The notes under the pieces are model-generated. The model ran no database searches. It saw only the letters and a program-made list of their open reading frames with translations, and was not told the origin of the DNA. The position numbers and the translations under genes were made by a program. Of a stretch of 64,000 nucleotides of DNA, positions 5,791 through 40,838 are shown piece by piece. Source of the stretch: an uncultured Acidobacteriota bacterium (GTDB taxonomy: Bacteria; Acidobacteriota; Thermoanaerobaculia; Thermoanaerobaculales; Sulfomarinibacteraceae); contig CAWGLT010000023.1 in the NCBI GenBank assembly GCA_963823445.1, forward strand, positions 151,018-215,017. Reading direction: 5' to 3'. How positions within the stretch are numbered: the first letter of the stretch is position 1; each line of letters opens with the position of its first letter.

Positions 5791-6327
5791 ATGAAACGCA
5801 TGATGACGTTGACGATGGTCGTGATCGGACTCGGGATAGCCGGGATCCGCGCAGCGGAGAACGGGGGGCAAGAAATGGGCGAAGTCATTTCCGTGTGGTC
5901 GGTGGAAGAGGGGAAGATGATCTCGACTGCCAGAATCATCAAGAGCGATGACGATTGGCAGCGGGAGCTGTCTCCGGAGGTGTACAAGATCACCCGAAGA
6001 AAGGGCACCGAGATGTCGTGCTCCGGAGCCTACTGGAAGAACGATCGCGAAGGTGTCTACCGCTGCGCCGCCTGTGGGAACGATCTCTTCGTCTCGACCA
6101 CGAAGTACACGTCCGGCACGGGCTGGCCGAGCTTCTTCCAACCGGTCCACGACGCAAACATCGGCAGCGAGCGCGACACCAGTCTGGGCATGGTGCGCGT
6201 CGAGGTTCATTGCGAGCGTTGTGGATCCCACCTCGGCCACGTCTTTCCCGACGGACCGAAACCCACCGGAAAGAGGTATTGCATCAATTCGCTGGCCCTC
6301 GACTTCGTCGAGATGGAAGTCAAGTAA
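5791..6327 (+). CDS. msrB: peptide-methionine (R)-S-oxide reductase with signal peptide
   Basis: Two CxxC pairs ([21 protein letters not shown]) and GWPSF. Signal-like [18 protein letters not shown]. The start could also be ATG 5767. Confidence 0.85.
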
Positions 6328-6330
6328 TTT

Positions 6331-6437
6331 TCAATTATGAATTTTTAATTATGAATTATGAATTGCGGAAGCTCTTCGACACCGTCGTGAGAATCTGCGA
6401 TGGAATTCATAATTCACAATTCATAATTCATAATTGA
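6331..6437. repeat. AT-rich hairpin built from heptad repeats (GAATTAT)n / (ATAATTC)n
   Basis: The 5' arm TCAATTATGAATTTTTAATTATGAATTATGAATTGCG pairs imperfectly with the 3' arm GGAATTCATAATTCACAATTCATAATTCATAATTGA. The loop is ~30 nt of normal GC content. It sits between msrB and the next gene. Confidence 0.85.
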
Positions 6438-7673: not shown

Positions 7674-7763
7674 CAGAATTCTCAATTCTTAATTGCATCG
7701 CAAAGTGTTATTGGGACTCTGCGATGCAATTAAAAATTAAAAATCAGGAATTGAGAATTCTCG
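7674..7763. repeat. AT-rich heptad hairpin (AATTCNN)n, terminator-like
   Basis: CAGAATTCTCAATTCTTAATTGCATCGCA ... TGCGATGCAATTAAAAATTAAAAATCAGGAATTGAGAATTCTCG, between convergent genes. Confidence 0.8.
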
Positions 7764-9715: not shown

Positions 9716-11512
9716 TCAGGAGCCCGTCGCAGGCAGGGCTGGATGCATGACGCGATAGATCGGCAGAAGACCGACCTGCTCGTCCCAGTGCGGGGTCCGC
9801 CGGTACCACCAGTCGTAACGCGCGCGCCCGTCGGCGGCGAAATCGGGATTCTCGAGCGCCGACTCCCACTCCGCCCTGGTGGCGTCGTCGGCGAGCATCT
9901 CGACCGCCAGCTCCTCGAGCTTGTCGAGCCCGATATAGGTCTTTTGCTCGAAGACCGAGTCGAGCGCGCCCCAGCGCAGCAGCGAATCCGGCGCCTCGGG
10001 TTCGAAGAGCTGGACCGCGACGGCGAAGTCCGGCTGGTCGGCCGGGATCCACAGGCTGCCCGCGGGGATCCGGCGGGTCTCCGTCTGCCGGGTGGTGACG
10101 AAATCCCTGACCATCACCGTGCCCTGGAAGGGAGCCTCGGCGAAGACCGGTGCGGCGACCCGGATGGTCTCGACCTCGAGCTCGACGGGCGCGGACAGGC
10201 GCTGCGTCACCAGGTGGTGCGCTTCGACCACCTCGACGAGCTGCGGCCAACCCGCGTGGACGAGATAGCCGCGCGGGCGCGCGAGCTCGAGTTCGGGCGC
10301 CGCAACGTGCCGGAAGGAGATCTCGGCCGGGACGATCTCGTCGCGGTGGTAGACAGTGCGCGGTCCGCCGGTGACCACCGAGGTCTCGGTGGTGGTGCGG
10401 TAGGACGGCCAGGTGAACTCGTCGTCGCTGTCGACGCCGCGCCACCGCACGATCACGGTCGACGGATCGGCGTCCGGTCCTGCCGAGAGCGCGGGTCCTC
10501 GCTTCCGCCGCCTGCGACCGCCGCAACGAGCGTCGACCCGGACCGGCCGGTCTCGACGATGAGGGCGTCCATGAAGTCGCGGTTGGCGAGCACCCGATCC
10601 CGGTACGGCTTGTGCGCGTGCATCTCGATGAGGATCGACGGCCGATTGATGAGCGGGAAGAACCCGGTCGAGTAGCGCGGCAGCTGGATGTCCGACCAGT
10701 CGACCCCGCTCGTCGGGTCGTCCCAGTCGACGAACGCGAGGTAGGGGCCGTTGGGGTGGCCGGCGGCGGCGGTGGCGTCGAGCACCCGCGGCAGGTGCGC
10801 AGCGACCCAGGCGTCGACCGCGGGGTCGAGTCGAGGTGCCTCGGCGACCATCCAGGTCAGAACCCAGGCGTGGTCGGAGCCGTTGGTGACGTGGTTGTCG
10901 ACGTGGAGGTGCGGCCGCCAGTCGGCGACGAGCTGCGCGAGCGCCCGCGCCTCGGGGCTCGCGAGCCGGAGGAAGTCGCGGTTGAGGTTGAGCCCGGCGG
11001 TGGTGGCGCGAAAGCCCATGCCCTCGACCGGGCCGTTCTGGTTGGGCCGGTTGTACGGCGAGACCCGCTCGTGGCCGTCGAGGTTGAAGATCGGCACGAA
11101 GAGCGTCACCGCCGCCTCGGCGAGATCCGGGCCGTCGGCCCAGGGCGATCTCGCGCAAAAGCATGAGGGTGGCGTCCTTGCCGTCGATCTCGCCGGCGTG
11201 GATGCCGCTTTGCAACAGCAGGATCGGCTTGCCGGCGGCGCGGGCAGCGGCCGGGGTGAAGGCTCCGTCGGACGAGACGATGACGAGGGGCAGCTCGCGG
11301 CCCTCGGCGGTTTCGCCGAAGCTCGTGACGCGGATGGTCTTCGGAGCGCGCGACTCGACGCGGCGGAGGAAGTCCATGGTCTCGGCAACGGTCGATGTGG
11401 CGCGGAAGTCGGTCTTCTCCGCCACCGTCTGCCAGACCTCGGGGACGTCCTCGGCGGTTGCGGGGCAGGGGAGGAGCAAGACAAGGCCGGCGAAGAGGGA
11501 AAGTCGTTTCAT
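9716..11512 (-). pseudogene. M14-family zinc carboxypeptidase, coding sense split over two reading frames
   Basis: The signal peptide, HxxE (SGIHAGEIDG) and the C-terminal third read in the frame of ORF 9716..11608. The central ~650 nt (TLFVPIFNLDGHER, NLNRDF, LHVDNH, ILIEMH) reads only in the frame of ORF 10453..11484. Frame switches are near 11140-11160 and 10485-10510. Confidence 0.55.
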
Positions 11513-11519
11513 GGCCGCC

Positions 11520-11547
11520 ACTCTAGCCCATCGCATTCTTACCGCAA
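11520..11547 (-). promoter_or_regulatory. sigma70-like promoter TTGCGG-16-TAGAGT, 7 nt before the ATG of the M14 gene
   Basis: Minus-strand reading is TTGCGGtaagaatgcgatgggcTAGAGTggcggccATG. The same module occurs at 13406-13433. Confidence 0.45.
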
Positions 11548-11595
11548 AGACCGCCAAGAACGCAAAGGACGTTGCAAAGGACATCGCCATATTGA
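11520..11595 (-). repeat. 9-nt-periodic repeat module E, copy 1
   Basis: ACCGCAAAG ACCGCCAAG AACGCAAAG GACGTTGCAAAG GAC. Homologous to 13403-13475 and to the arms of the hairpin at 16281-16438. Confidence 0.8.
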
Positions 11596-11699
11596 CCCGT
11601 CGCGGCATCGCACAATGGCGTGCCCGGCACCCCGAGGGACGTTTCTTTCCCTCCGACCCGGGGCGGCATCTGCCGCTGTCGGCCCGGCCGCTGCCGCTG

Positions 11700-11800
11700 C
11701 CCCCGACAGGCTGGAAGCCTGTCGCTACACAGGGGCCGTTCTTGATTGTGTAGCGACAGCCATCCTGGCTGTCGTCGGTGACGTGCCCGAACGCGGTACC
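11700..11800 (+). repeat. REPIN-like triple-hairpin element, copy A1
   Basis: GACAGGCT-GGA-AGCCTGTC (11705-11723), GCTACACA-15nt-TGTGTAGC (11724-11754), GACAGCCA-TCC-TGGCTGTC (11755-11773), with a conserved tail GTCGGTGACGTGCCCGAACGCGGT. Confidence 0.9.
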
Positions 11801-11907
11801 CTACCGCTGCCCCGGCCGCTGTCAGTGACGCTGTCCCGGCCGCTGTCGCTGTTCCCGGTTCTCACGGCTCCGGCCTTCCGGTCCGCCTTCGGCGGCCCGG
11901 CGTCGCC

Positions 11908-12126
11908 CCATCGGCGGGGTCGCTTGGGTGGTGAATGGGAAGGGCTGCGACCCCGCCGATGGCGCGCCGGCGGCCTTCTTCGTTGCCGGAGCAGAGGACC
12001 GCATCGCGCCTCCCGGGGGAGCCCGGTATGACAATGTGCGCAACGGGTTGCGGTGCCGGGAGGACTTTGGGGCACATTGTCAAACCCCGCACCCCGAGGA
12101 TCGCCCCTTTCCCTCCGACCCGGGGC
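11908..12126 (+). repeat. composite structured repeat B, copy B1
   Basis: 16-bp hairpin CCATCGGCGGGGTCGC/GCGACCCCGCCGATGG (11908-11962), then hairpin TGACAATGTGC/GCACATTGTCA (12029-12082), then a GCACCCCGAGG tail. Homologous to 26611-26886 (inverted) and 40839-41053. Confidence 0.85.
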
Positions 12127-12236
12127 AGTCTCGGTTCGGGTCCCGGGTGCGGTCGCTGGTTGCTGCCGCTGTCCCTGCTTGCTGTCGCTGATCGCTGCCA
12201 CTGATTGCCGCCGCCGCTCTGTGGTGGCCGCGGAAC

Positions 12237-13385
12237 TCATTCAGCCGTCAGGACCTGGCGAGCGAGAAAGGCCGCCAACGCCTGGTGACCCGCCGGGTTG
12301 AGGTGTCCGTCGCCCGGCAGGATCCAGTCGGTGCGTCCCTCGAAGAAATCCCGGGTGTCGACCACTTCGAGACCATGACGGCCACAGATTGATTCAAGCG
12401 ATCGCTCGAGCCTGGCCTGGGCCCGATCTCGTTCGGGCCATTCCTTTTCGACCGGCGGGACTAGATGGATCACCACCAGCCGAACCGCGAGCCGGTCGCA
12501 TCGCTCGGCGAGGTCGGCGAGGACGGTGTCGTGGTAGAGCTCGATCGGTGCGAATCGCGAGTCGTCGAGCACTGCGGCCATGGCGTTTCCGGGTCTGGGT
12601 TCGCCCTCGGGTGGTGGGCGCCACTCAGGTGGAGTCACCGATTCCGGAGGCCTGGCGGGTCGCCAACGGCGAATCTTGGCCGTCAACCGGACGATTGCGG
12701 AGGAAAACGCGATGCGGACCGCCAGCGGTTCCCGATGGGCCTGCAGACGCCCGATCCGCTCACGGAGGCCGTCGTAGTCGAACGAAGCGATCTCCGGGAA
12801 CTCGGGTCCGCCCCGGGCACGACCCAGGTTCTCGAGATCGTTGATATCGTTGACGTATACGAAGAGCAGGACGGTGTCGGGTCGGATCTCGTCGAGGTGA
12901 AGGCGCAACGCGAGGTAGTGCTCGTAGAGGCACTGGCCCTGCGCCGACATGTCGTAGGCGTCGACGCCGTGGTTCGTTCTCAGGAAGTGGGCGACGGTCT
13001 CGGCGGCCTCGACTCCGTGGCCGTAGACCAGGGAATCCCCGAGGAGGAGGACCCGGGGGTTGTCGATTCCGGCGGGATTTCGGTAGGCGCGCGAATCGGT
13101 CTCGTGGGTCCAGAAATAGCCGTGCGAGTAGGCGCGGGTCCGGTGGTCGGCGCGCATGACGCGCGACCGGGTCAGCCCCTCGAAGAGGAAGATTCCGCCC
13201 GGCAGGGTGTCGTACTTCGCAAAGGCCGCGTGCCGGAGTCTGTCGTTGAGGAGTCGAGGAAACGAGCGAATGGCGCTCTCGGCGATGAGAAAGCCAACGA
13301 CGAGCGCGACCAGAACTGTCGCCAGGCGAAAAAGCCTGAGACGAACCCGATGAGGTGCTGTCGCCATGGAGCGATGATGCCACAC
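12237..13385 (-). CDS. SGNH/GDSL-family hydrolase with N-terminal membrane anchor
   Basis: GDS motif (VLLLGDSLVYGHG) and C-terminal DGHLNPAGH (DxxH). The start is GTG 13385 or ATG 13367. Confidence 0.65.
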   Translation of the reverse strand: MWHHRSMATAPHRVRLRLFRLATVLVALVVGFLIAESAIRSFPRLLNDRLRHAAFAKYDTLPGGIFLFEGLTRSRVMRADHRTRAYSHGYFWTHETDSRAYRNPAGIDNPRVLLLGDSLVYGHGVEAAETVAHFLRTNHGVDAYDMSAQGQCLYEHYLALRLHLDEIRPDTVLLFVYVNDINDLENLGRARGGPEFPEIASFDYDGLRERIGRLQAHREPLAVRIAFSSAIVRLTAKIRRWRPARPPESVTPPEWRPPPEGEPRPGNAMAAVLDDSRFAPIELYHDTVLADLAERCDRLAVRLVVIHLVPPVEKEWPERDRAQARLERSLESICGRHGLEVVDTRDFFEGRTDWILPGDGHLNPAGHQALAAFLARQVLTAE

Positions 13386-13402
13386 CAGCCGATCCCAAGG
13401 AC

Positions 13403-13475
13403 GCCACTCTAGCCCATTGAATATTCACCGCAAAGAACGCCAAGATCGCAAAGGACGTCACATTTGACGTGTGGG
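13403..13475 (-). repeat. 9-nt-periodic repeat module E, copy 2
   Basis: ACCGCAAAG AACGCCAAG ATCGCAAAG GACG followed by the small hairpin ACGTCA-catt-TGACGT. Confidence 0.8.
13406..13433 (-). promoter_or_regulatory. sigma70-like promoter TTGCGG-16-TAGAGT upstream of the SGNH hydrolase gene
   Basis: Minus-strand reading is TTGCGGtgaatattcaatgggcTAGAGTggcg. It is the second copy of the promoter-bearing module E. Confidence 0.4.
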
Positions 13476-13540
13476 TGGCGCGGGGCTTCGAGGGTGCCTG
13501 ACTGCGTGGTGGCGATTCGCGTTCCGGGTTGGACGCTGAA

Positions 13541-13604
13541 GGCAGGCAGGATGCCTGCCCCACAACGGAGACGGTTGAGTTGTGGAGCAGGCTTCCAGCC
13601 TGCT
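13541..13604 (+). repeat. REPIN-like triple-hairpin element, divergent copy A4
   Basis: GGCAGGCA-GGA-TGCCTGCC, CCACAAC-12nt-GTTGTGG, AGCAGGCT-TCC-AGCCTGCT. Same architecture and loops as A1-A3, with different self-complementary stems. Confidence 0.85.
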
Positions 13605-13761
13605 CATGATGGGATGATTCAATAATGTGATGGTTTTGCGATGGGTCGAAGGCGAGGCGCCGGCGGCCTCCCTCTGAGCCGGGAGAACACGGCCGCAACG
13701 TTGTAACCCGTGGTTAGGGATGAACGTCGCCAGGAACGCCCCGCCGAGCCTGATGCTGGCG

Positions 13762-13868
13762 TCGCGGGTGGCCGAGGGAGCCACCTTTAGCATTGTTCGG
13801 GATCAGCGTTGAGCCGAAGATCGGCGACTCACACCCGAACAATGACAAAAGACGGCACCCCGTTCGAC
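13762..13868 (+). repeat. two-helix hairpin element, copy D1
   Basis: GGGAGCCACCTTTAG CATTGTTCGG (13791-13800) ... CCGAACAATG (13835-13844) ACAAAAGACGGCACCCCGTTCGA. Near-identical flanks occur at 52622-52729. Confidence 0.85.
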
Positions 13869-13952
13869 GCCCTTCTTCCGATGCTCGAGGCTCTCGACCG
13901 CGTGTCCGGTTCGGCGCGTCCGACGCGCCGCCGCAATTCGTCCGACGAATTG

Positions 13953-15182
13953 CTAGGGCATCTCGGTCCGGGTGAGCATCTCCATCGCCTCCGGCCGCGG
14001 CTCGTTCTTCTTCGAATCCCAGTAGGGCGAGAGCCGTCGCAGGCTGTCGACGATCCCGGGAAAGACCTCGATGACTCGATCGACCTCGGCTTCGGTGTTG
14101 TAGCGGCTGAGCGAGAAGCGCACCGAGCCGTGGATCGCCGAGAAGGGGATGTGCATGGCTCTGAGGACGTGCGAGGGCTCGAGGGAGCCGGAGGTGCAGG
14201 CCGAGCCCGATGAGGCGCAGATGCCCTGCGCGCTGAGCTGGTAGAGGATGCCCTCGCCCTCGATGAAGTGGCAGGCGACGTTGAGGGTGTTGGAAAGCCG
14301 CGGCGAGTTCCTGCCGTTGACTTCGAGGTAGGGGATGCGGGCGACGAGCTCCCGCTCCAGGCGGTCGCGCATGGCGAGAATCCGCGGTTCGTCCTCATCG
14401 TGCCGCGCCATGGCGAGCTCGAGGGCCTTGGCGAGGGCGACGATGAAGGCGACGTTTTCGGTCCCCGCTCGACGCCCGTCCTCCTGGTGGCCGCCGAGGA
14501 GAAACGGCCGGCAACGGGTGCCGCGGCGGATGTAGAGGGCGCCGACGCCCTTGGGCGCGTGCAGCTTGTGGCCGGAGAACGACAGCAGGTCGACATGCTT
14601 GAACGAGCCGCGGAGATCGATTGGGAGCTTGCCCACGGTCTGGGTGGCGTCGGTGTGGAAGATGATGCTCTCGTCGGTTTCCTTGGTGATGCGGGAGAGC
14701 TCTTCGACCGGAAAGATGACCCCGGTTTCGTTGTTCGCGTGCATCACCGAAACCATCAGGGTGTCGGATCGGAGGGCGCGGACGAACTCGACGCGGTCGA
14801 TCTGACCATCGGCATCGACCGGGATGAAGTCGACGTCAAGGCCTCTGCGTCGGAGATCCTCGCCGACGGAGAAGATGGCCGGGTGCTCGACCCCGGTCGT
14901 GATGATGTGGCGGCGCTCCGGATTGGCGGCGATGGCGCCGAAGACCGCCGTGTTGTTGGACTCGGTCGCGCAGGAGGTGAAGAGGATCTCGGGCGGCCGG
15001 GCGTTGCCGAGGAGCCTGGCGACGGTCTTGCGCGCGTCGGCGATGGCGTCGGCCGGGATCTGGGCCGGTTCGTAGAGCGAACTCGGGTTGTAATAGTCAT
15101 CGGTGAGGAAGGGCATCAACGCCTCGACCACCTCGGGCGCAACCCGGGTGGTGGCGTTGTTGTCCATGTAGATGATGTTCAT
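13953..15182 (-). CDS. nifS: cysteine desulfurase (NifS/IscS type)
   Basis: 409 aa. PLP Lys context SFSGHKLHAPKG and active-site loop SSGSACTS. Downstream of nifU on the minus strand. Confidence 0.9.
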   Translation of the reverse strand: MNIIYMDNNATTRVAPEVVEALMPFLTDDYYNPSSLYEPAQIPADAIADARKTVARLLGNARPPEILFTSCATESNNTAVFGAIAANPERRHIITTGVEHPAIFSVGEDLRRRGLDVDFIPVDADGQIDRVEFVRALRSDTLMVSVMHANNETGVIFPVEELSRITKETDESIIFHTDATQTVGKLPIDLRGSFKHVDLLSFSGHKLHAPKGVGALYIRRGTRCRPFLLGGHQEDGRRAGTENVAFIVALAKALELAMARHDEDEPRILAMRDRLERELVARIPYLEVNGRNSPRLSNTLNVACHFIEGEGILYQLSAQGICASSGSACTSGSLEPSHVLRAMHIPFSAIHGSVRFSLSRYNTEAEVDRVIEVFPGIVDSLRRLSPYWDSKKNEPRPEAMEMLTRTEMP

Positions 15183-17046: not shown

Positions 17047-18759
17047 ATGACGCTCTTCTCGTCTTCCCGTCGTCTCGCGCTGTTCCTGGTACTCGTCGTC
17101 ATTGCGGGACCGCTCTCCGCGGCCTCGCCCGAACCGGCCCGGGGAACCGGAGGTGCGGTGGCGAGCGCCGCTCCAGCGGCCACCGAGGCCGGTTTGGAGA
17201 TTCTCCGGGCCGGCGGCAATGCCGTCGATGCGGCGGTGGCGACGGCCGTCGCTCTCGCGGTGGTCCACCCGCAGGCCGGCAATCTCGGCGGCGGCGGATT
17301 CGCGGTCGTGCGGATCGGCGGTGAGGTGACGGCCCTCGATTTTCGCGAGGCGGCCCCGGCCGCGGCCGACCACGACATGTACCTCGACGCCGAGGGCGAC
17401 CCGGTGGCCGACAAAAGCCTGGTCGGTCCGTTGGCGGCCGGCGTGCCCGGTTCGCCGGCGGGTCTGTGGGAGCTCCACCGGCGCCATGGTTCGCTCGATT
17501 GGGCGCGGGTGGTGGCTCCGGCCGCGCGACTGGCCGGCGAAGGATTCGTGGTGACCGAGCGGCTCGAGAGATCCGTGGCCAATGCCGCGAAGCTGCTCGG
17601 CCGATTCCCGGAAACCGCGGCGGTGTGGCTGCCCGGCGGCAATCCGCCGGTCGCGGGCTCCGTCATGAAGATCCCCGACCTCGCGGCGACCCTTCATGCC
17701 TATGCCGAGAAGGGCCCCGCAGCCATCACCGGCGGCGCCGTGGCGGCGGCCGTCGAAGCCGTTTCAGACCGGCACGGCGGCATTCTCACCGTGGCGGACC
17801 TCGAGGCCTATCGACCGGTGTGGCGCGAACCCGTTGCCTTTCAGGCCTTCGGATGGAACGTGGTCTCCATGCCGTTGCCGTCCTCCGGCGGAATCATCCT
17901 CGGCCAGACCACCGGTCTGCTCGAACGCGTCGAGTGGCGGCAGGCGCCCCGGTTCGGCGCCGAACGGGCTCGCCTGCTCGTCGAGGCCTGGCGCCGGGCC
18001 TACGCCGATCGCCTGCTGCTCGGCGATCCCTCCACGACCCGGGCCACCGCCGCCGATCTCCTCGAGAGGAACTGGCTCGATTCCAGGGCGCTCGAGCTTG
18101 ATTCGCCGCGGGCGATCCCATCGGCCGATGTCGGCTCATGGGGCGCCTCGAACCCACGTGAGTCCACTGAAACCACCCATCTCTCGGTGGCGGACGGCGC
18201 CGGCAACGTGGTCAGCATCACCACCACCCTCAACGGGAGCTTCGGCTGTGGCCTGCTCGTCCCGGGCGTCGGCTTTCTGCTCAACAACGAGATGGATGAT
18301 TTCGCCGTCGCGCCGGGCCGACCCAATTTCTACGGTCTGATCCAGGGGGAGGCCAACGCGGTGGGTCCGGGAAAGCGGATGCTGTCATCCATGTCGCCCG
18401 CCGTGGCCTGGCGCGGGACCGAAACGGTGGCTCTGGGCTCGCCCGGCGGATCGACGATCCCCACCGTGACCGCTCAGGTCCTCCTCAATGTCATCGTTGA
18501 CGGAGACGACATCCAGGCCGCCGTCAACCGGCCCAGGATCCACCACCAGTGGATGCCGGATGAGATCGCGGTCGAGCCCGATGCGTTCTCGCCGGAAACG
18601 GCGGCGGAGCTCGAGCGGCGCGGCTACCGACTCAAGGACCGGAGCCGTCTCGGCGAGGTGAACGCGGTACGGGCGACCGCGGGTGGCATGGTCGAAGCCG
18701 CCGCCGATCCGCGCGGACCGGGTTCGGCGGGGGTGGTCCGGCCCGCTCCGGGGTCGTGA
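17047..18759 (+). CDS. ggt: gamma-glutamyltransferase
   Basis: 570 aa with a signal peptide and the autoprocessing/catalytic Thr context ETTHLSVAD ... LNNEMDDF. Confidence 0.9.
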   Translation: MTLFSSSRRLALFLVLVVIAGPLSAASPEPARGTGGAVASAAPAATEAGLEILRAGGNAVDAAVATAVALAVVHPQAGNLGGGGFAVVRIGGEVTALDFREAAPAAADHDMYLDAEGDPVADKSLVGPLAAGVPGSPAGLWELHRRHGSLDWARVVAPAARLAGEGFVVTERLERSVANAAKLLGRFPETAAVWLPGGNPPVAGSVMKIPDLAATLHAYAEKGPAAITGGAVAAAVEAVSDRHGGILTVADLEAYRPVWREPVAFQAFGWNVVSMPLPSSGGIILGQTTGLLERVEWRQAPRFGAERARLLVEAWRRAYADRLLLGDPSTTRATAADLLERNWLDSRALELDSPRAIPSADVGSWGASNPRESTETTHLSVADGAGNVVSITTTLNGSFGCGLLVPGVGFLLNNEMDDFAVAPGRPNFYGLIQGEANAVGPGKRMLSSMSPAVAWRGTETVALGSPGGSTIPTVTAQVLLNVIVDGDDIQAAVNRPRIHHQWMPDEIAVEPDAFSPETAAELERRGYRLKDRSRLGEVNAVRATAGGMVEAAADPRGPGSAGVVRPAPGS

Positions 18760-19391
18760 TGCGGATCGTCGACGAGATCCGCGAGGAGCACCGTCTCATC
18801 GATCGGGTGACGGGCTCGTTGTTCTTTTGGGCCGATCGCGGTTGGGACCATCCCGACGCCGCCGCCGACCTCGACGACCTCATTCACTTTCTGCGGCTGT
18901 ATGTGCATGGATTTCACCATCAGCGGGAAGAGGTTCTCTTCCGAGCGCTGGTGGAACACGGCGAAGTACCGGGCCATCACGGCCCGCTCGCGATCCTCAC
19001 CGCCGAGCACGAGAGCGTGCCACAGGTTTTGGACCGGCTCGCGGAGGCGGGCGCCTGCGCCGAGTCGGTGTCGGTGGCGAGAACGCTTGCGGCGGAGATC
19101 TGGCAGCACCTGGACAAGGAGGAGACGGTTCTGCTGCCCGAGGCCGAACGCCGTCTCATCGACGGCGGGATCCGGGAGCTCGATGGGCCGCCGGCGTCGG
19201 ACGAGGTCGAGGCCGCGCGGGTGTTGGGGCTCGAGTTGGTTCGGAGGCTGCCGCCGAAGGACGACCCCCACCTCATCCGCGGCGACGGTTGCATCCCCTG
19301 CGCCGCCTTCGGCGACACCTGCCACGGAATCGAAACAGAATGGTGGAGCGACTGGGAGAGGGAACACTATCGGTCCCTCGACGAGGGGTAG
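18759..19391 (+). CDS. hemerythrin (HHE cation-binding) domain protein
   Basis: The ATG overlaps the ggt stop (TGATG); GTG 18756 is also possible. H/E-rich motifs EEHRLID, HHQREE, AEHESV, HLDKEE. Confidence 0.7.
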   Translation: MRIVDEIREEHRLIDRVTGSLFFWADRGWDHPDAAADLDDLIHFLRLYVHGFHHQREEVLFRALVEHGEVPGHHGPLAILTAEHESVPQVLDRLAEAGACAESVSVARTLAAEIWQHLDKEETVLLPEAERRLIDGGIRELDGPPASDEVEAARVLGLELVRRLPPKDDPHLIRGDGCIPCAAFGDTCHGIETEWWSDWEREHYRSLDEG

Positions 19392-19458
19392 GGGAATCGC
19401 TCGATTGACATCCCCTCGGCACCGGCCGACGCGTTCCCTGTCGATGCCCCTGCCGCTG

Positions 19459-19600
19459 CCCCCGACAGGCTGGAAGCCTGTCGCTACACAGCGGCCGTTC
19501 TTGATTGTGTAGCGACAGCCATCCTGGCTGTCGTCGGTGACGTGCCCGAACGCGGTCCCCTGCCGCTGCCGCTGCCGCTGACGCTGCGGCTGCCGCTGCC
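19459..19600 (+). repeat. REPIN-like triple-hairpin element with (GCTGCC)n tail, copy A2
   Basis: Hairpins at 19464-19482, 19483-19513 and 19514-19532. Nearly identical to A1 and A3. Confidence 0.9.
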
Positions 19601-19603
19601 GTC

Positions 19604-19659
19604 GGTCGCTGCCCCGGTCGCGCGGTCGCTGCCCCGGTCGCTGCCCCGGTCGCTGCCCC
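19604..19659 (+). repeat. 12-mer microsatellite (GGTCGCTGCCCC)n
   Basis: Four full units and one truncated unit between A2 and A3. Confidence 0.9.
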
Positions 19660-19797
19660 CGACAGGCTGGAAGCCTGTCGCTACACAGCGGCCGTTCTTG
19701 ATTGTGTAGCGACAGCCATCCTGGCTGTCGTCGGTGACGTGCCCGAACGCGGTACCCTGCCGCTGCCGCTGCTGCTGACGCTGCGGCTGCCGCTGCC
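19656..19797 (+). repeat. REPIN-like triple-hairpin element with (GCTGCC)n tail, copy A3
   Basis: Starts 197 bp after A2. Hairpins at 19661-19679 and 19711-19729 flank the central GCTACACA/TGTGTAGC hairpin. Confidence 0.9.
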
Positions 19798-19867
19798 CCT
19801 GCTTGCGCGCTGAATCGGAAACGGGTTCGGAGGCAATTGCGGGCGAGGTGGGCTACAGTACGGTGCC

Positions 19868-21559
19868 ATGAAGACACCCAACCTCATCACCCCAGTCCTC
19901 GCCGCCGTCATCGGCCTCGCCGCGTGCGGCGCCGGCCCCGAGCCGGCGGATCTCGTGATCACCGGCGGTCGCATCGTGACCCTGGATCCCCAGCGACCGG
20001 AGGTCGAGGCCGTGGCGGCGCGCGGCCAGAAGATCGTCGCTGCCGGAAGCGCCGCCGAGATGGCGAAGCTCATCGGCAGCGCGACCGAGGTCATCGATCT
20101 CGAGGGCGCCCTCGCGGTGCCGGGTTTCATCGAGGGCCACGGCCACTTCACCGGTTTGGGCCGATCGCGGATGATCCTCGATCTGACCCGGGTGGAGAGC
20201 TTTGACGAGATCGTCGAGATGGTGGCCGCGGCGGCGGCCGAGGCCGAACCGGGGGTCTGGATTCTCGGACGCGGCTGGCATCAGGAGAAGTGGAGCTCGA
20301 CCCCCGAGCCCCACGTCTCGGGTCTTCCGTATCACCACGATCTGAGCGAGGTCTCACCGGCCAATCCGGTGCTTCTCACCCACGCCAGCGGCCATGCTGC
20401 CATGGTCAACGAGGCCGCCATGGCTCTTGCCGGCATCGTTGACGAAACCCCCGATCCCGCCGGGGGTGAGATCGTCCGCGACGGCGACGGTCGCGCCATC
20501 GGCGTGCTGCGCGAGACCGCCGAAGATCTGGTGGCGGAGCATCTCGGGAGCGAACCGGACGCAGCCACCCTCCGCAGCGCCATCGATCTGGCGAGTCGGG
20601 AGTGTCTCGCCAAGGGGATCACTTCGTTTCAGGATGCCGGTTCCAGCTTCGCAACGGTCGAGGTGCTCAGGACCATGGCCGAGAACGGTGAGCTGGCCCT
20701 CCGGCTGTGGGTCATGCTCAGCGAGGACAACGAAAGCCTGGCGGCCGGACTGCCCGGATACCGGGTCCACCGGGCCGGCTCCGATTATCTGACGGTGGGC
20801 GGCATCAAGCGTTGGATCGACGGCGCCCTCGGGTCGCACGGCGCCTGGCTGCTCGAACCCTATGCCGATCTTCCCAGCAGCATCGGACTCAACATCGTCA
20901 CTCCGGAAGAGTTGCGCGAGACCGCTCGGCTCGCTCTCGAACACCACCTCCAGCTCTGTTCGCACGCCATCGGAGATCGAGCCAACCGCACAACCCTCGA
21001 TGTCTATGAAGAGGCCTATGAGCTGGTGCCCGAGCCCCGCGACCTGCGCTGGCGGATCGAACACGCCCAGCACCTCCACCCGGACGACATCGCGCGCTTC
21101 GCCGAGATCGGGGTGGTGGCGGCCATGCAGCCCATCCACTGCACCTCTGACGGGCCGTGGGTCCCGGTGCGGCTCGGTGAGGAACGTTCGCGGACCGGGG
21201 CCTATGTCTGGCGGGATCTTTTTTCCACGGGGGCGGTCATCGCCAGCGGCACCGATGTGCCGGTGGAACCCGTCGATCCGCTGCCGTCGTTCCACGCCGC
21301 CGTGACGCGTCAGATGGCGGACGGCACGGCGTTTTATCCCGAACAGGTCATGACCCGGACGGAAGCGCTCCATGCGCGGACCCTCGGCGCCGCCTACGCC
21401 GCCTTCGAGGAGGACATCAAGGGATCTCTCGAGATCGGCAAGCTGGCCGATGTGACGGTGTTCTCGAAAGACATCCTGGCGGTGCCGGCGGCCGAGATCC
21501 TCGAGGCCGAGGTGATCTACACCATCGTCGGCGGTGAGGTGAGATATCGCGCGAGATAG
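19868..21559 (+). CDS. amidohydrolase-family metallohydrolase (YtcJ-like)
   Basis: 563 aa with a lipoprotein-like signal (LAACG) and metal ligand motifs EGHGHF, SHAIGD, GTDVPVE. Confidence 0.8.
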   Translation: MKTPNLITPVLAAVIGLAACGAGPEPADLVITGGRIVTLDPQRPEVEAVAARGQKIVAAGSAAEMAKLIGSATEVIDLEGALAVPGFIEGHGHFTGLGRSRMILDLTRVESFDEIVEMVAAAAAEAEPGVWILGRGWHQEKWSSTPEPHVSGLPYHHDLSEVSPANPVLLTHASGHAAMVNEAAMALAGIVDETPDPAGGEIVRDGDGRAIGVLRETAEDLVAEHLGSEPDAATLRSAIDLASRECLAKGITSFQDAGSSFATVEVLRTMAENGELALRLWVMLSEDNESLAAGLPGYRVHRAGSDYLTVGGIKRWIDGALGSHGAWLLEPYADLPSSIGLNIVTPEELRETARLALEHHLQLCSHAIGDRANRTTLDVYEEAYELVPEPRDLRWRIEHAQHLHPDDIARFAEIGVVAAMQPIHCTSDGPWVPVRLGEERSRTGAYVWRDLFSTGAVIASGTDVPVEPVDPLPSFHAAVTRQMADGTAFYPEQVMTRTEALHARTLGAAYAAFEEDIKGSLEIGKLADVTVFSKDILAVPAAEILEAEVIYTIVGGEVRYRAR

Positions 21560-25168: not shown

Positions 25169-25205
25169 GTGCGGAGTCCCCTCGTCAGTCGAGGCGATGG
25201 GAGCG

Positions 25206-25245
25206 GTGCCAGGCACCTTTTCGCGGCGAAAAGAGAGCCAGGCAC
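25206..25245 (-). repeat. GTGCCTGGC-flanked hairpin element, copy F1 (inverted)
   Basis: The reverse complement reads GTGCCTGGCTCT CTTTTCG-ccg-CGAAAAG GTGCCTGGCAC. Confidence 0.85.
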
Positions 25246-25272
25246 CGGGCCCGCGTGCTGTCGAGGGGCTCC

Positions 25273-26484
25273 CTACTCGCCCGCCTCGTTCTCCGGGAAG
25301 TGCTCGACGACAACATCGAGATGATCGGTGAGCTCTTTGAGCTCGCGGGTCAGGGCGCGGCCGATGACGAGCCGCTGGACCTGGTTGGTGCCCTCGTAGA
25401 TCTGGGTGATCTTGGCGTCCCGCATGTACTTCTCGATGGGGTAATCCCTGCAGTAACCGTAACCGCCGAAGAGCTGCACTGCGTCGGTGGTGACCCTCAT
25501 GGCGGTGTCGGTGGCGAAGACCTTGCCCATGGCGGCGATCTTGTTGACGTTGGCGGCGCCCGAGTCGATGACCCGCGCCGAGTGGTAGACGAGTTGCCGG
25601 GCGGCCTCGATCTGGGTCGCCATGTCGGCGAGCATGAACTGGATTGCCTGGTGCGACATGACCGTTTGACCGAACTGCTTGCGCTCCGAGGTGTAGCGCA
25701 TGGCCCATTCGAAGGCGCCCTGGGCGAGTCCGAGGGCCTGGGCGGCGACCCCCGGGCGCGCCCGGTCGAGGGTCATCATGGCGTTCTTGAAGCCGACGTT
25801 CTCCTTGTCGCCCATGAGCTGTGACGCCGGAACCCGGCAGTCGGTGAACTCGAGCTCGTTGACCGGGACGGTGCGGATGCCCATGGTGTCTTCGCGCTTG
25901 CCGACGGTGAAGCCCGGAGTGTCCTTTTCGACGATGAAGGCCGAAATCCCACGCATGCCGCGGGCGGGGTCGGTGAGGGCGTAGACGGTGAAGGTCGAGG
26001 CGACCCCGCCGTTGGTGTTCCACTTTTTCTGGCCGTTGAGGACGTAGTCATCGCCGTCCTTGATCGCGGTCGTGCGCAGGCTGCCCGCGTCGGAACCCGA
26101 AGGCTTCTCGGAGAGACCGAAGGCGATGAGGGCATCGCCGGCGGCGATGGGCGGGAGGTATTTCTGCTTCTGCTCCTCGGTGCCTCCGATGATGATGGGG
26201 AAGGACCCCAGGGCATTGACGGCGAAGGCGACGCCGACGCCGCCGCACGCGCGGGACAGCTGCTCGACGATGAGACAGAGGTTGAGTACGCCGGCGTCCT
26301 TGCCGCCGTACTCCTCGGGGATCCAGGCTCCGGTGAGCCCGTAGGACTTGAGGGCCTCGAGGATCTCCCAACCATACTCGCCGGTGCGGTCGAGCTCGGC
26401 GGCGACCGGGCGGACGTACTTTTCGGCCACTTCGCGGGCGCGTTCCTGATAGTCGAGGTTTTCTTTGCTCAGCAGCTCGTTCAT
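25273..26484 (-). CDS. acyl-CoA dehydrogenase
   Basis: 404 aa starting at MNELLSK (ATG 26484, GGAGGAGG SD). ACAD motifs (GLSEKPSGSDAGS, QLFGGYGY, IYEGTNQVQ). Confidence 0.9.
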   Translation of the reverse strand: MNELLSKENLDYQERAREVAEKYVRPVAAELDRTGEYGWEILEALKSYGLTGAWIPEEYGGKDAGVLNLCLIVEQLSRACGGVGVAFAVNALGSFPIIIGGTEEQKQKYLPPIAAGDALIAFGLSEKPSGSDAGSLRTTAIKDGDDYVLNGQKKWNTNGGVASTFTVYALTDPARGMRGISAFIVEKDTPGFTVGKREDTMGIRTVPVNELEFTDCRVPASQLMGDKENVGFKNAMMTLDRARPGVAAQALGLAQGAFEWAMRYTSERKQFGQTVMSHQAIQFMLADMATQIEAARQLVYHSARVIDSGAANVNKIAAMGKVFATDTAMRVTTDAVQLFGGYGYCRDYPIEKYMRDAKITQIYEGTNQVQRLVIGRALTRELKELTDHLDVVVEHFPENEAGE

Positions 26485-26610
26485 GGTTGCCTCCTCCGCG
26501 TCGGATGCCCGCCATTCTCGCACATCATCCCGCGTCCGCGTCGGTTTCCGTGCCCATGCCCGATGTCTCAGCGGCAGCGGCAACCAGCGGCAACAACCAG
26601 CGACCGATAC

Positions 26611-26886
26611 GCCCTCCAGGACCCGCGGAAAACCACGCCCCATCGGGGTGCCGGGTTTGACATTGTGCCGGAGCGACCGACCAGCTTCGCGGCGCTCCCC
26701 GCACAATGTCATACCGGGCTCCCCCGGGACGGGCGATGAAGTCTGATCTCCCGGCTACGAAGCAGGCCGCCGGCGTGCCATCGGCGTGGTCGCAGCCCTT
26801 TCAATCAACCCGCGAGCGACCACGCCGATGGCGCGACGCTGGGCCGCTGGGACGCCAAAGCGTCACGGCGGCCCGGAAGGCCGGGG
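26611..26886 (-). repeat. composite structured repeat B, copy B2 (inverted)
   Basis: Hairpins TGACATTGTGC/GCACAATGTCA (26658-26711), CCATCGGCGTGGTCGC/GCGACCACGCCGATGG (26778-26831) and GACGC-CAAA-GCGTC (26851-26864). Roughly 85% identical by eye to 40800-41053 when reverse-complemented. Confidence 0.85.
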
Positions 26887-27113
26887 ATGAGGACAGCATC
26901 AGGGGCAGCATCAGCGACAGCGTCAGGAATCACCGACAGCGACAGCGGCGGCGGCAGTCTTCAGGGGCAGCGACAGTGGCAGCAATCAGGGACAGCGTCA
27001 GGAACCAACGGCAAAACGTGCGCGATCGGACGTTTCCCTTGACGCGGATCGCAGCATCAACACTCCTGGTTGTTCTTGATGAGACGGGAATCTGCGCCTC
27101 TGCGTTGAAACCG

Positions 27114-27833
27114 TCACCCCGTGGCCTCGACCAACCCGAAGGTCCTCTTCCTCCCGTGGTACCAGGCCACGGCGCGATCGAAGTCTTCGGGTGAGAAATC
27201 CGGCCACCGCTGATCGGTGAAGAAGAGCTCGGCGTAGGCCGCCTGCCAGAGCAGGAAATTCGAGAGCCGGCGTTCGCTGCCGGTGCGGATGACGAGATCG
27301 GCGGGTGGAGTGTCCCCGGTGTCGAGGTTGTCGCCGAAGAGGACGTCTTCGATGGCGTCCGGGTCGAGCTCGCCGTCGGCGACCCGGCGCGCGAGCCGGC
27401 GCGCGGTGCGGACGATCTCGTCGCGGCCGCTGTAGGAGAGGGCGAGGGTGAGCCGCATCCCGCCGAGGCCGCGGGTTTTCTTGATCGCCCGTTCGAGCAG
27501 CGACCCGGCGCGGTTCGGCAATCGCCCGAGATCGCCGATGGCTGCAAGCTCGATGCCGTGCTTCTTGAGCCCCTCCTCCTGATCGACGATGAACTCGGCC
27601 AGGAGCTCCATGAGGCAGTTGACCTCGAATGCCGGACGGGCCCAGTTTTCGGTCGAGAAGGCAAAGAGGGTCAGATAGCTGAGACCCGCTTCCCGGCAGT
27701 GGGTGATGATCCTCCTCACCGCCGCCGCTCCCTGGTGATGGCCGGCGGTCCGCGCGAGACCTCGAGCCCGGGCCCAACGGCCGTTGCCGTCCATGATGAT
27801 CGCGACGTGTCGAAGTGGGGATTCTCTCATCAT
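27114..27833 (-). CDS. uppS: isoprenyl transferase (undecaprenyl-diphosphate synthase)
   Basis: HVAIIMDGNGRWA, FSTENW and RTGGE-like IRTGSERRLSNFLLWQ motifs. GGAGG lies 4-7 nt before the ATGATG at 27833/27830. The track ORF begins at 27860. Confidence 0.9.
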   Translation of the reverse strand: MMRESPLRHVAIIMDGNGRWARARGLARTAGHHQGAAAVRRIITHCREAGLSYLTLFAFSTENWARPAFEVNCLMELLAEFIVDQEEGLKKHGIELAAIGDLGRLPNRAGSLLERAIKKTRGLGGMRLTLALSYSGRDEIVRTARRLARRVADGELDPDAIEDVLFGDNLDTGDTPPADLVIRTGSERRLSNFLLWQAAYAELFFTDQRWPDFSPEDFDRAVAWYHGRKRTFGLVEATG

Positions 27834-28059
27834 CGGTCCTCCGTGAGTCGGTTGATCCATGCAACCAGATTCGGGCCGGAAGGCGATGACCGCGTGGCGG
27901 GTTCATGGCGGTTGTGTGGCGAACAGCGGCGGTTTCGTGCCGCCGGTGCGAGCTCATCCGGTGAGAAGGCCTGCCCGAGCGGCCCCAGCCGATGGTCTGC
28001 CGTCCGTTCGCCGCTCGCCCCGGGGTGGTGTTATCCTTTTCGAGCAGATTTGGAGGCAC

Positions 28060-39797: not shown

Positions 39798-39834
39798 GGG
39801 CTCTCCTCGTCCGTGGCCGGACAATATATACCAA

Positions 39835-39851
39835 GTCTCAACATTTGCCGA
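39835..39851 (-). promoter_or_regulatory. possible extended -10 promoter within TTGAGACTTGGTATATA
   Basis: Minus strand reads TTGAGACTTGGTATATATTG about 35 nt upstream of the radical-SAM ATG. The same 12-mer occurs upstream of fmt. Confidence 0.35.
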
Positions 39852-40070
39852 CCCTCGGGGCTTCCAGGATCCGTGCCCGGGTCCGCGTCCGATTCCGTTT
39901 CCGTTCCCGATCCCGATCCCGGTCCCGAATAGCAGCGTCCGGGGCAGTGGCAGCGGCAGCGCCAGGGGCAGCGACCGGGGCAGCGGCAGGAACAGCGGCG
40001 GCGTCAGCCTCCGCGTTTCTTTCCGTGCCCGTATCCGCTTCCGTGACAGATCCGAGCCGATCTGCGATGG

Positions 40071-40838
40071 ATTGTGGGGGCGGGCTTCCAGCCTGCCCGT
40101 CAGGGTTGTTGAAGCCGGCCGTGCGTTCCCGAGAGAGTGCGGGGTATTGGGTCTTGTGGGATCTCGGGTTCCTGTCCTCCTCCCCGGCCTTCTGGGCCGC
40201 CGTGACGCTCTGGCGTCCCGGCGACCCAGCGTCGCACCATCGGCGTGGTCGCGGTTTTCTTTCAGGTTGGGCGGACATTGTGGGGGCGGGCTTCCAGCCT
40301 GCCCGTCAGGGTTGTTGAAGCCGGCCGTGCGTTGCCGAGAGAGTGCGGGGTATTGGGTCTTGTGGGATCTCGGGTTCCTGCCCTCGTCCCCGGCCTTCTG
40401 GGCCGCCGTGACGCTGTTGCGTCCCGGTGTCCCAGCGTCGCACCATCGGCGTGGTCGCGGTTTTCTTTCAGGTTGGGCGGTCATTGTGGGGGCGGGCTTC
40501 CAGCCTGCCCGTCAGGGTTGTTGAAGCCGGCCGGGCGTTGCCGAGAGAGTGCGGGGTATTGGGTCTTGCGGGATCTCGGGTTCCTGCCCTCGTCCCCGGC
40601 CTTCTGGGCCGCCGTGACGCAGTGCGTCCCGGCGACCCAGCGTCGCGCCATCGGCGCAGTCGCGGTTTTCTTTCAGGTTGGGCGGACATTGTGGGGGCGG
40701 GCTTCCAGCCTGCCCGTCAGGGTTGTTGAAGCCGGCCGTGCGTTGCCGAGAGAGTGCGGGGTATTGGGTCTTGCGGGATCTCGGGTTCCTGCCCTCCTCC
40801 CCGGCCTTCTGGGCCGCCTCCGGCGACCCAGCGTCGCA
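40071..40838 (+). repeat. tandem array of four ~206-bp structured non-coding units
   Basis: Units start with ATTGTGGGGG at 40071, 40277, 40483 and 40688 (periods 206, 206, 205). Copies 1-3 are ~95% identical by eye. Copy 4 lacks one internal hairpin and merges into element B3. Confidence 0.9.

Follow-up and report, generated by a model that had tools for sequence, protein, structure and literature searches.

What fills the long gaps between genes in a stretch of bacterial DNA where most genes are tightly packed? The question arises from a 64,000-nt stretch of the genome of an uncultured Acidobacteriota bacterium (the window, to which all positions refer unless a locus is named), in which five long spacers carry repeats. 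We call these spacers islands 1 to 5 (11513-12236, 13386-13952, 19392-19867, 26485-27113 and 39798-41170). An earlier note on this DNA had set them against the close spacing of the other genes, and rightly so: on a crude gene map based on codon usage they are the five longest of 54 spacers, the median spacer being 86 bp. We conclude, with a probability of roughly 0.8, that the islands are clusters of repetitive extragenic palindromic (REP) sequences and REP doublets forming hairpins (REPINs), similar to BIMEs (bacterial interspersed mosaic elements), in a Thermoanaerobaculales-like acidobacterium. The conclusion draws on the REP and REPIN anatomy, the order of modules in a composite unit, the colinearity of island 1 with that unit, REPtrons (genes for a REP-associated tyrosine transposase, RAYT, flanked by their own REP arrays) in relatives, and changes in copy number at orthologous sites, all of which were observed directly.

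Repeats were detected by self-BLAST, a repeat finder and Tandem Repeats Finder (TRF), and motif counts were compared with those in shuffled sequence. Every module that the earlier note had named was recovered by these programs where it had been placed. Motif matches in the window number 6-9 where shuffles lead one to expect 0-0.05; the repeats are real and far beyond chance. The modules A1, A2 and A3 are 87-96% identical over 165-176 nt. Identity among B1, the inverted B2 and B3 is 72-82% over 228-327 nt and rises to 92% in a 184-nt core, and B2 and B3 are 92% identical over 184 nt. E1 and E2 share 86.7% identity over 60 nt, and D1 (13744-13872) and D2 (52605-52734) share 82%. Two shorter pieces also resemble B: a solo half-site (11610-11664 against 12072-12126, 80%) and a fragment (13657-13700 against 40893-40935, 84%).

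Module A is a REPIN, in which two GTAG-tagged REPs form a dimer with the tags inside ('TT'). Its two hairpins, CGACAGGCT-gga-AGCCTGTCG and CGACAGCCA-tcc-TGGCTGTCG, are perfect, and each is abutted by GCTACACA or TGTGTAGC. The REP core is a 25-nt palindrome with a 9-bp stem, a 3-nt loop and a GTAG (or GTGG) tag at its 5' foot. Hairpins of these dimensions lie at 11704-11724 and 11754-11774, 19463-19483 and 19513-19533, and 19660-19680 and 19710-19730. A pattern scan of the window gave six exact GTAG-REP matches, with none expected, and these form three inverted pairs that are all intergenic. The tag-to-tag spacer is 15 nt when measured between TGTG/CACA-extended tags and about 19 nt between the 25-nt pattern matches. 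Minus- and plus-strand matches are offset by 44 nt in the window; in metagenome contigs the offset is mostly 46 nt, in a few 43, and in locus L078 39. GTAG-tagged REPs of this anatomy, tags-inside dimers and REPINs have been described (PMC3733652, PMC6006769).

The sequence TGTAGC stands directly before every A stem in the window and is invariant in 38 of 39 aligned copies, in which the REP cores are unchanged and the spacer and flanks vary. Stem changes are limited to one kind, present in 23 of the 39 left-hand REPs: the tagged strand gains a G·T wobble, and its complement a C·A mismatch. A wobble confined in this way fits a hairpin folded from the tagged strand. Module A4 of island 2 has the architecture of A in a variant sequence, with GTGG as the tag and GGCTTCCAGCC as the core, and so do the first 30 nt of every unit of a 206-bp repeat in island 5. 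A solitary hairpin at 626-646, GGACCGGCT-gga-AGCCGGTCC, shares the GGCTGGAAGCC core of the REPs and has no GTAG tag; it lies in the 42-bp spacer of two minus-strand genes.

We scanned one genome per species for the A-type REP pattern and obtained 43 loci with exact matches: 37 in the long-read assembly MFD03804.bin.1.249 (Acidobacteriota), three in MFD09964.bin.2.45, and one each in MFD09779.bin.2.172, a Thermoanaerobaculales assembly and an Armatimonadetes genome. The matches are high in copy number and lineage-restricted, nearly all of them being in Acidobacteriota, and those of the window are all intergenic. No synteny was found between the window's genes and these REP-selected loci. The single match outside Acidobacteriota (L036 5628-5652, Armatimonadetes UBA5352) could reflect a binning error, horizontal transfer or chance. 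In metagenomes a slightly relaxed REP pattern matched 42 contigs, most of which carry the inverted pair.

One of these contigs, L078, has a minus-strand open reading frame (ORF) that matches E. coli RayT (phmmer, 9e-12). It passes the Pfam family Y1_Tnp (27.7 bits against a cut-off of 23), has TnpAREP 4ER8 as its sole PDB match (1.5e-9), contains HVH and Y-x3-NP motifs, and scores higher against a bona fide RAYT (56 bits) than against acidobacterial TIRYTs (≤41 bits). The phmmer search used the open frame 1018-1743, and the Pfam and PDB searches used the longest ATG-initiated frame (1018-1719), although a start near 1650 is likelier. Exact A-type REP dimers flank the gene, one on its 3' side and three to four in tandem on its 5' side, and L078 is a REPtron of the GTAG type. 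The RAYT of L091/L092 is 58% identical to that of L078, and its flanking dimers have the same architecture and the same loops, with co-varied stems. A 47%-identical homolog occurs in L093 (contig_39981, ENA assembly ERZ25039514). The same assembly accession holds L045 (contig_47457, MFD03804.bin.1.249), a locus syntenic to the window with proteins 93% identical to the window's. Around the L093 gene stand GTGG-tagged dimers, of which one lies upstream and a tandem run of about five downstream; A4 and the head of every 206-bp unit can be aligned with them. With L078 and L093, both REP types of the window are matched by cognate RAYTs in REPtrons of relatives.

How are the REPINs related to the other modules? 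The islands had been described as mosaics of nested modules. In relatives, the order of the modules is fixed. The 43 loci contain 82 matches to B, 73 to U' (the 3' part of the 206-bp unit) and 48 to A, and neighbouring pairs are U'→B (68), B→A (27), A→U' (23) and B→U' (11), with all others at three or fewer and none on opposite strands. Tandem arrays in relatives have periods of 342 bp (without A), 454 bp and 459 bp. The modules are parts of a composite unit, U'-B-tract-A-tract, that measures about 450 bp (440-460 bp in arrays); its tracts are short hexamer repeats. Over its whole length, island 1 (11600-12130) can be aligned with about 1.3 periods of this unit, in the order B right arm and tail, tract, A, tract, U' and B. 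Its so-called solo half-site (11610-11664) corresponds in the alignment to the right arm of B in the L006 and L004 arrays and is the end of a first, 5'-truncated unit. Because the order is fixed and island 1 is colinear with the unit, the modules are not independent nested insertions, and the mosaic description gives way to a composite one.

Islands 3, 4 and 5 conform to this scheme. Island 3 is a tandem duplicate of tract-A-tract, island 4 a single inverted U'-B block between tracts, and island 5 a variant in which GTGG-REP, a middle segment and U' are amplified fourfold ahead of B. As in BIMEs, REPs alternate with a few conserved non-REP motifs and stand in tandem, in the window as a 206-bp and a 197-bp array. 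A third GTAG-tagged REP doublet (TTGTAGCGCCGGCGTCCCGCCGGCG) forms 96-bp tandem arrays at L020 3729-4168 and L006 2401-2647, and the related assembly contains near-perfect hexamer microsatellites, (CACGGT)28 at L020 6569-6737 and (TCACGG)27 at L006 5147-5308.

The hexamer tracts were thought to flip from GCTGYC to GRCAGC with the inversion of their module. This holds for the inverted island 4. However, in island 5 the modules are not inverted, and a GRCAGC tract (39932-40008) lies to their left with a GCTGYC tract to their right. Inspection of the sequence shows that the GCTGYC unit equals the outer arm of the right-hand REP (GGCTGTCG). Degenerate amplification of a REP arm may thus have given rise to the tracts, which may act as a source of homology between loci.

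The islands were also said to lie always between co-directional genes. All five do so in the window, where 34 of the 54 spacers are co-directional, 10 convergent and 10 divergent, but the hypergeometric probability of this is C(34,5)/C(54,5) ≈ 0.09. Crude gene calls on the 43 loci of relatives place islands in 16 of 113 co-directional spacers, 11 of 32 convergent ones and 8 of 34 divergent ones, and the arrays have no orientation bias relative to transcription. Since all three classes of spacer contain islands, the family as a whole does not follow a co-directional rule. Unidirectional and convergent spacers are the ones that published REP families prefer (PMC3733652), which makes the pattern in the window unremarkable either way.

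Four syntenic loci from independent assemblies, with coding DNA 78-90% identical to the window's, record the history of the islands at orthologous spacers. L045 and L046 correspond to the window at about 27.5-51 kb, L047 and L048 at about 9-31 kb. The content of orthologous spacers differs between these genomes, in agreement with the earlier proposal that the islands are built from mobile or expandable modules. Island 5 is 1373 bp in the window, with tracts, four 206-bp units and B. It is 834 bp in L046, which has the same layout (tract, B, U', one GTGG-REP, tract, promoter region), and a reduced 320 bp in L045, with one 206-bp unit; B has the same relative orientation in all three. Island 3 (476 bp) corresponds in L047 to an empty spacer of 33 bp with a normal ribosome-binding site, and in L048 to a site with an extra Exo_endo_phos gene. 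When this region is compared with L047 (19392-19930 against 9915-10060), the 5' end of the window's amidohydrolase gene and the N-terminus of its product differ, the window's N-terminus having a lipoprotein-like signal, MKTPNLITPVLAAVIGLAAC.

At island 4, the window has 629 bp with U'+B between tracts, and L047 (352 bp) and L048 (543 bp) have (CCGTKY)n and (CAGCGN)n tracts and no B. The U'+B block may have been inserted into a pre-existing tract or lost in the relatives through recombination between the flanking direct tracts, alternatives that the comparison cannot polarise. The idea of a preferred insertion context keeps from this the fact that U'+B lies inside a tract that two relatives have alone; however, deletion explains the arrangement equally well. 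Island 1 contains E1, truncated B, A1, U' and B1, and island 2 contains E2, A4, a B remnant and D1; L047 has U'+B at both orthologous sites, and L048 has E at both and D at that of island 2. The pattern at these two islands is one of differential loss from a richer ancestral state. The islands are old residents that expand, contract and decay, as described for REP clusters.

The mechanism we propose builds on what RAYT/TnpAREP work (Nunvar 2010; Ton-Hoang 2012; Messing 2012; Bertels & Rainey 2011) has reportedly established. By analogy with TnpAREP, REP hairpins would form on single-stranded DNA, where a single-copy Y1 HUH transposase would recognise them, cut at the tag and disperse the REPINs. 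In this lineage, REPIN pairs are joined to non-REP stem-loops (U' and B) and hexamer tracts in one higher-order unit of about 450 bp. Arrays would subsequently gain and lose units in place when tandem units and flanking tracts recombine unequally or slip, possibly with gene conversion through the tracts. Local recombination or gene conversion of this kind would account for similarity between copies that runs past the REPIN. Effects on neighbouring genes, such as termination, mRNA stability or new promoters, would be secondary.

Several observations weigh against this interpretation. Homology between A copies continues for about 50 nt beyond the REPIN into the tracts (self-BLAST), and the window's U' and B have no GTAG-tagged short palindrome. 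What spreads is thus a larger unit than a classical REPIN, and it may move by recombination rather than by a RAYT. No RAYT was found in the 64-kb window or in the 43 loci (344 kb of REP-flanking sequence from genome assemblies) with a motif regular expression or with E. coli RayT in phmmer. L078 is tied to the lineage by REP identity and similar G+C only, its phylogenetic placement being impossible. Finally, the earlier note had advised a look for target-site duplications. Neither the clean empty-versus-filled site of island 3 nor island 4 has a target-site duplication or a sharp boundary, and the boundaries at both are blurred by tracts and replaced flanking sequence.

Modules B and D lack the REP design and share one of their own. 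Their arms are 25-30 nt long and contain CATTGT/ACAATG, the loop is variable (26-35 nt), and the outer ends are GGGGTGCC / GGCACCCC. We assessed pairing in 15 distinct pairs of arms, selected beforehand for the core and linked through an artificial GAAA loop. In these, 79.6% of cells pair, compared with 29-40% for a slid partner. Compensatory changes occur outside the required core at pairs 6/37 (CG 6, UA 6), 8/35 (AU 5, CG 4, GC 4) and 15/28 (GC 12, UA 3). The arms of D are nearly invariant in six copies, whereas its loop varies. D1 is 91.8% identical to its ortholog in L048, a higher value than for the flanking genes (78-86%) or the paralog D2 (about 82%), and D is found just 3' of a stop codon in three independent loci. 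In contrast, B orthologs are 72-75% identical and diverge faster than coding DNA. Single-sequence folds have z-scores of only -0.7 to -3.1, too modest to be decisive.

The beginning of the B/D arms, GGGGTGCC, agrees in seven of eight positions with GGGGWSAS, a terminal inverted repeat (TIR) motif that flanks TIRYT genes, including those of Acidobacteria (PMC3733652). Searches with ten published RAYT/TIRYT query sequences found no Y1/TIRYT gene beside B or D in 706 kb, and a search for an autonomous B-type element, with arms around a gene, gave only fuzzy-match artefacts. B and D might be a separate and undescribed family of long-armed hairpins, with pairing kept by compensatory changes and with either a mobilising enzyme of its own, such as a TIRYT-like Y1, or a role for the host at the 3' ends of genes. 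Such a family would be fused with REPINs and hexamer microsatellites into a self-amplifying satellite of about 450 bp, the tracts serving as landing pads for recombination. We consider this unlikely; if true, the compound would be a system of intergenic repeats unlike any yet described.

Module E is associated with a putative promoter element. The motif GGCTA(G/C)AGT (GGCTANAGT) occurs three times in the window where 0.26 are expected: at 11520-11528 on the minus strand (as GGCTAGAGT), at 13406-13414 on the minus strand and at 19851-19859 on the plus strand. Two of the three copies belong to the E repeat. It lies about 8 nt 5' of the called ATG at 11520 (ATG 11512) and 19851 (ATG 19868), and at 13406 about 20 nt 5' of the GTG start used (13385). 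Its sequence and position resemble those of a -10 element serving leaderless mRNAs. Cores similar to E, with three units of about 9 nt (CTTKGCGNN) followed by TGAAAnnGCGATG, are a dispersed repeat in the lineage. They were located at 11513-11612 and 13396-13470 in the window, at L046 9160-9290, and in L048, L058, L060, L071 and L080. They are not always at gene starts, the L046 copy being directly after the MeaB stop codon. A further repeat family, F (GCGTGCCTGGCTCTCTTTTCGTCCGACGAAAAGGTGCCTGGCACCGCACGGGAA), which has an 8-bp hairpin between direct GTGCCTGGC repeats, lies at 52465-52575, 57389-57499 and 25194-25254. The first two copies are 87% identical; F also stands beside D in L045 and L046 and has 97% identity in L021.

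How well do other explanations accommodate these observations? The earlier note had conceded that the islands could be assembly artefacts such as collapsed or chimeric repeats. Repeats are numerous here and short-read contigs often end in them, but the units of the arrays differ by point changes, the flanking genes are intact, and four independent assemblies, which come from different projects and assemblers, have homologous islands at the orthologous spacers. The last point excludes an artefact for practical purposes, and its probability is negligible. We also find it quite improbable that each module (A, B, D, E and the 206-bp unit) is an independent miniature transposon that repeatedly inserted into earlier copies or into a favoured co-directional context. 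This would suit the differing module content of orthologous spacers, including the B of L046 and the D of L045 and L046 where the window has none, and also the U'+B block of island 4 inside a tract that is present alone in two relatives. However, it does not predict that U', B and A keep a strict order and orientation, with neighbours never on opposite strands, or that island 1 is colinear with the composite unit. Islands in every spacer class of the relatives, beside P≈0.09 in the window, leave little of the favoured context, and islands 3 and 4 show zero target-site duplications.

Two further explanations concern what drives or maintains the composite units. The hexamer tracts, as portable homology or landing pads in many spacers, may seed homologous recombination or gene conversion, and this rather than transposition may be the main way in which the units spread and become homogenised; we would put it well short of an even chance. 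Tracts flank every module block, with constant orientation relative to B in three of three window copies; they stand alone at orthologous sites; their GCTGYC unit is a REP arm; and the similarity of A copies continues through them. Moreover, paralogs within the genome are more alike (B2 and B3, 92% over 184 nt) than are most copies from other assemblies (82-90%). The tracts are, however, short, degenerate and different between loci and genomes (GCTGYC, GGTACG, GCTGGAT), no junction has been demonstrated, and cognate RAYT genes with flanking REP arrays exist. Recombination would complement the action of a RAYT and does not exclude it. Somewhat unlikely, in our estimation, is that the modules are selected cis elements of the host rather than selfish DNA, the hairpins at 3' ends (D, B and F) being terminators or mRNA stabilisers and E a promoter cassette. 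The conservation of D1 and of the D arms, the place of D after stop codons, the compensatory changes in B and D, and the E1 and E2 copies that abut start codons with their -10-like GGCTAGAGT all agree with such roles. The rapid divergence of B orthologs does not, nor do arrays that lack a consistent orientation relative to transcription and occur in divergent spacers, copy numbers that vary freely between relatives, or E-like cores that are sometimes away from gene starts; hairpin-plus-T-run terminators are also not evident.

Island 1 lies between the ATG (11512) of an M14 peptidase gene and a GDSL hydrolase gene (12237-13385). E1 (11513-11612, minus strand) abuts this ATG and has three units of about 9-10 nt (CTTKGCGNN), then TAAGAATGCGATGGGCTAGAGT. 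The truncated B (11610-11664, plus strand) comprises the right hairpin arm GCACAATGGCG, the tail GGCACCCCGAGG and a small hairpin. A GCTGYC hexamer tract (11665-11703, plus strand), within the unit common to A1-A3, runs into the left REP of A1. The A1 REPIN (11704-11774, both strands) has GTAG REPs at 11705-11729 (minus) and 11749-11773 (plus), with the tags inward, and is followed by a 12-mer/hexamer tract of CCGCTGTCCCGG-like sequence (11800-11860, plus strand; TRF 11804-11847, period 12). U', with an internal deletion, was found by self-BLAST at 11870-11923 (plus strand). Its part 11890-11923 is 88% identical to 40219-40252, and 11870-12097 is 80.7% identical to 40801-41026. An inverted repeat with a stem of about 20 bp (CGCCCCATCGGCGGGGTCGC ... 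GCGACCCCGCCGATGGCGCG, 11897-11973) spans the junction of U' and B, its arms (11897-11923 and 11973-11947) being 88.9% complementary, and the fold of 40789-41060 has the same feature. B1 (11926-12130, plus strand) is a non-REP stem-loop with arms at 12030-12039/12072-12081, a 32-nt loop and the tail GCACCCCGAGG. The last feature is a GCTGYC tract detected by TRF (12149-12218, plus strand), which adjoins the stop codon of the GDSL gene (12237) and is 82% identical to the inverted tract at 26944-27010.

Island 2 separates the GDSL gene from that of a NifS-like aminotransferase (13953-15182). E2 (13396-13470, minus strand) is 5' of the start of the GDSL gene and is kept in the orthologous spacer of L048. 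A4, the GTGG-type REPIN (13541-13605, both strands), reads GGCAGGCAGGATGCCTGCC CCACAAC ... TTGTGG AGCAGGCTTCCAGCCTGCT and has perfect hairpins at 13541-13559 and 13585-13605. The B remnant (13657-13700, plus strand) is 44 nt long, and the orthologous spacer of L047 has a full U'+B. D1 (13744-13872, plus strand) has arms at 13774-13802/13834-13862 and a variable loop, its right arm ending in GGCACCCCG; the second copy of this hairpin, D2 (52605-52734, plus strand), is outside the five islands. Island 3, between the genes for a hemerythrin (18756-19391) and an amidohydrolase (19868-21559), contains the 197-bp tract-REPIN-tract duplication (19436-19797, plus strand; TRF 1.8 copies, 96% matches), in which the A2 REPIN is at 19463-19533, the A3 REPIN at 19660-19730 and the tracts at 19555-19659 and 19755-19802.

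The core of island 4 (26568-27013, minus strand), between genes for an acyl-CoA dehydrogenase (25273-26484) and UppS (27114-27860), consists of GRCAGC tracts (26568-26606 and 26891-27013), the inverted B2 (26616-26810) and an inverted U' (26816-26896). Island 5 lies between the genes for a B12-binding radical-SAM protein (37194-39797) and MeaB (41171-42163). Two paired tracts 5' of the radical-SAM gene (39875-40008, plus strand), (CCGNNY)n at 39875-39930 and (GRCAGC)n at 39932-40008, were found by TRF and a period-6 scan, and this pair recurs in the orthologs of island 4 and in L046. The 206-bp array (40071-40893, plus strand) has 3.6-4 copies with 96% matches, each unit consisting of a GTGG REP (ATTGTGGGGGCGGGCTTCCAGCCTGCCC), the middle segment and U'. 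B3 (40856-41057, plus strand) has orthologs in L046 and L045 in the same relative orientation. The GCTGYC tract at 41059-41145 (plus strand) adjoins the MeaB stop codon and is an inverted repeat of the tract at 39968-39999, with 94% complementarity.

The genes that bound the islands, assigned by Pfam, are well-supported housekeeping genes and are intact. Close protein homologs of the window's genes are labelled Thermoanaerobaculales or Candidatus Sulfomarinibacteraceae, and the G+C content of the window is about 65%. A covariance scan with Rfam 15, at gathering and permissive thresholds, gave zero matches in the islands even at E≤5. Its sole match in the window is an ordinary cobalamin riboswitch (RF00174, 22219-22422, plus strand, 88.8 bits) 5' of a periplasmic-binding-protein/ABC transporter operon. 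A tRNA/tmRNA scan of the window found zero genes, and a promoter/terminator scan found nothing convincing within the islands. We rejected a CRISPR array, because whole 206-bp and 450-bp units repeat without unique spacers. Also dropped were a coding reading of the hexamer tracts as Gly-Ser or Asp-Ser repeats, in which the frame breaks after a few codons, and readings of CACAATG as an attC, dif or recombination signal sequence (RSS)-like site, which the core motifs do not fit.

Other repeats in the window lie outside the islands. A hairpin with a perfect 20-bp stem (44495-44538), between a convergent ABC-F-like gene and rsmB, resembles a bidirectional terminator; the orthologous spacer in L045 and L046 has a (GCTGGAT)n tract with D and F modules instead. 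AT-rich heptamer tracts, (AATTATG)n, occur at 6326-6437, 7721-7759 and 53994-54074 despite the G+C content of the genome. They sit at the ends of intergenic regions, and the one at 6331-6437 consists of two inverted blocks with a 39-nt spacer. Relatives have different heptamers at similar places (GATTTTC, GTGAGTC, GCTGGAT and CTCCTCA). Tracts of the CTAACCC/CTAACGT type lie beside gene ends at 49768-49810 and 54106-54157, and one of them shares a divergent spacer with an AATTATG tract.

To our knowledge, REP/REPIN-RAYT systems have been studied almost solely in Proteobacteria. The window presents a well-developed system with two REP types in a Thermoanaerobaculales-like acidobacterium, with matching RAYT genes in relatives, and long-read assemblies preserve its kilobase arrays. 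It offers a natural case in which REPINs are fused with other hairpin modules and microsatellites into higher-order units, and in which arrays expand and contract at fixed chromosomal sites. Operons are reshaped in the process, island 3 standing between two genes whose spacer in a relative is 33 bp. Annotation of such islands would also help genome curation, since they yield spurious ORF calls and many short-read contigs stop within or beside them.

Among known systems, the closest likeness is to the REPIN/RAYT systems of Pseudomonas fluorescens, E. coli and Stenotrophomonas, in which imperfect palindromes with a 5' GTAG tag form inverted pairs that are extragenic and multi-copy, RAYT genes are flanked by their own REP arrays, and REP stems co-vary with RAYT divergence. 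The present system differs in its Acidobacteriota host, in having a second family with a GTGG tag, in that copies in relatives are mostly within a composite of about 450 bp, and in that the similarity of copies runs past the REPIN. Acidobacteriota are not among the phyla listed in a 2013 survey of GTAG-REP hosts (PMC3733652). With the GTAG REP super-family (Di Nocera et al. 2013, PMC3733652) it shares an unpaired GTAG at the end of a stem-loop, 'TT' dimers, heterodimers with different stems, clusters reiterated with their flanks, and G·T pairs on one strand. However, the stem/loop CGACAGCC-ATCC-TGGCTGTCG / GGCTGGAAGCC core is absent among the sequences compared, and the clusters of relatives are not depleted from divergent spacers.

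B and D resemble the TIR repeats of TIRtrons (TIRYT, Acidobacteria) in their 25-30-nt inverted arms around a short variable segment and in being single or clustered. They differ in one motif position and in having no TIRYT gene beside them in the 706 kb, and the likeness may serve as a lead rather than as a sign of membership. Miniature inverted-repeat transposable elements (Correia, ERIC, RUP and Nezha) are likewise small, non-coding intergenic repeats with inverted ends, but here target-site duplications and DDE-type terminal inverted repeats are absent and head-to-tail tandem arrays dominate. Enterobacterial BIMEs are, like the islands, intergenic mosaics of REPs and a few conserved non-REP motifs, often in tandem and with strain-variable copy number. 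In the islands, by contrast, the non-REP part is much larger, U'+B being about 280 nt with long hairpins of its own, and hexamer/12-mer microsatellite tracts serve as linkers. The islands are a known phenomenon in a new setting, namely REP/REPIN clusters with an unusually large composite unit in little-studied Acidobacteriota of soil and sediment.

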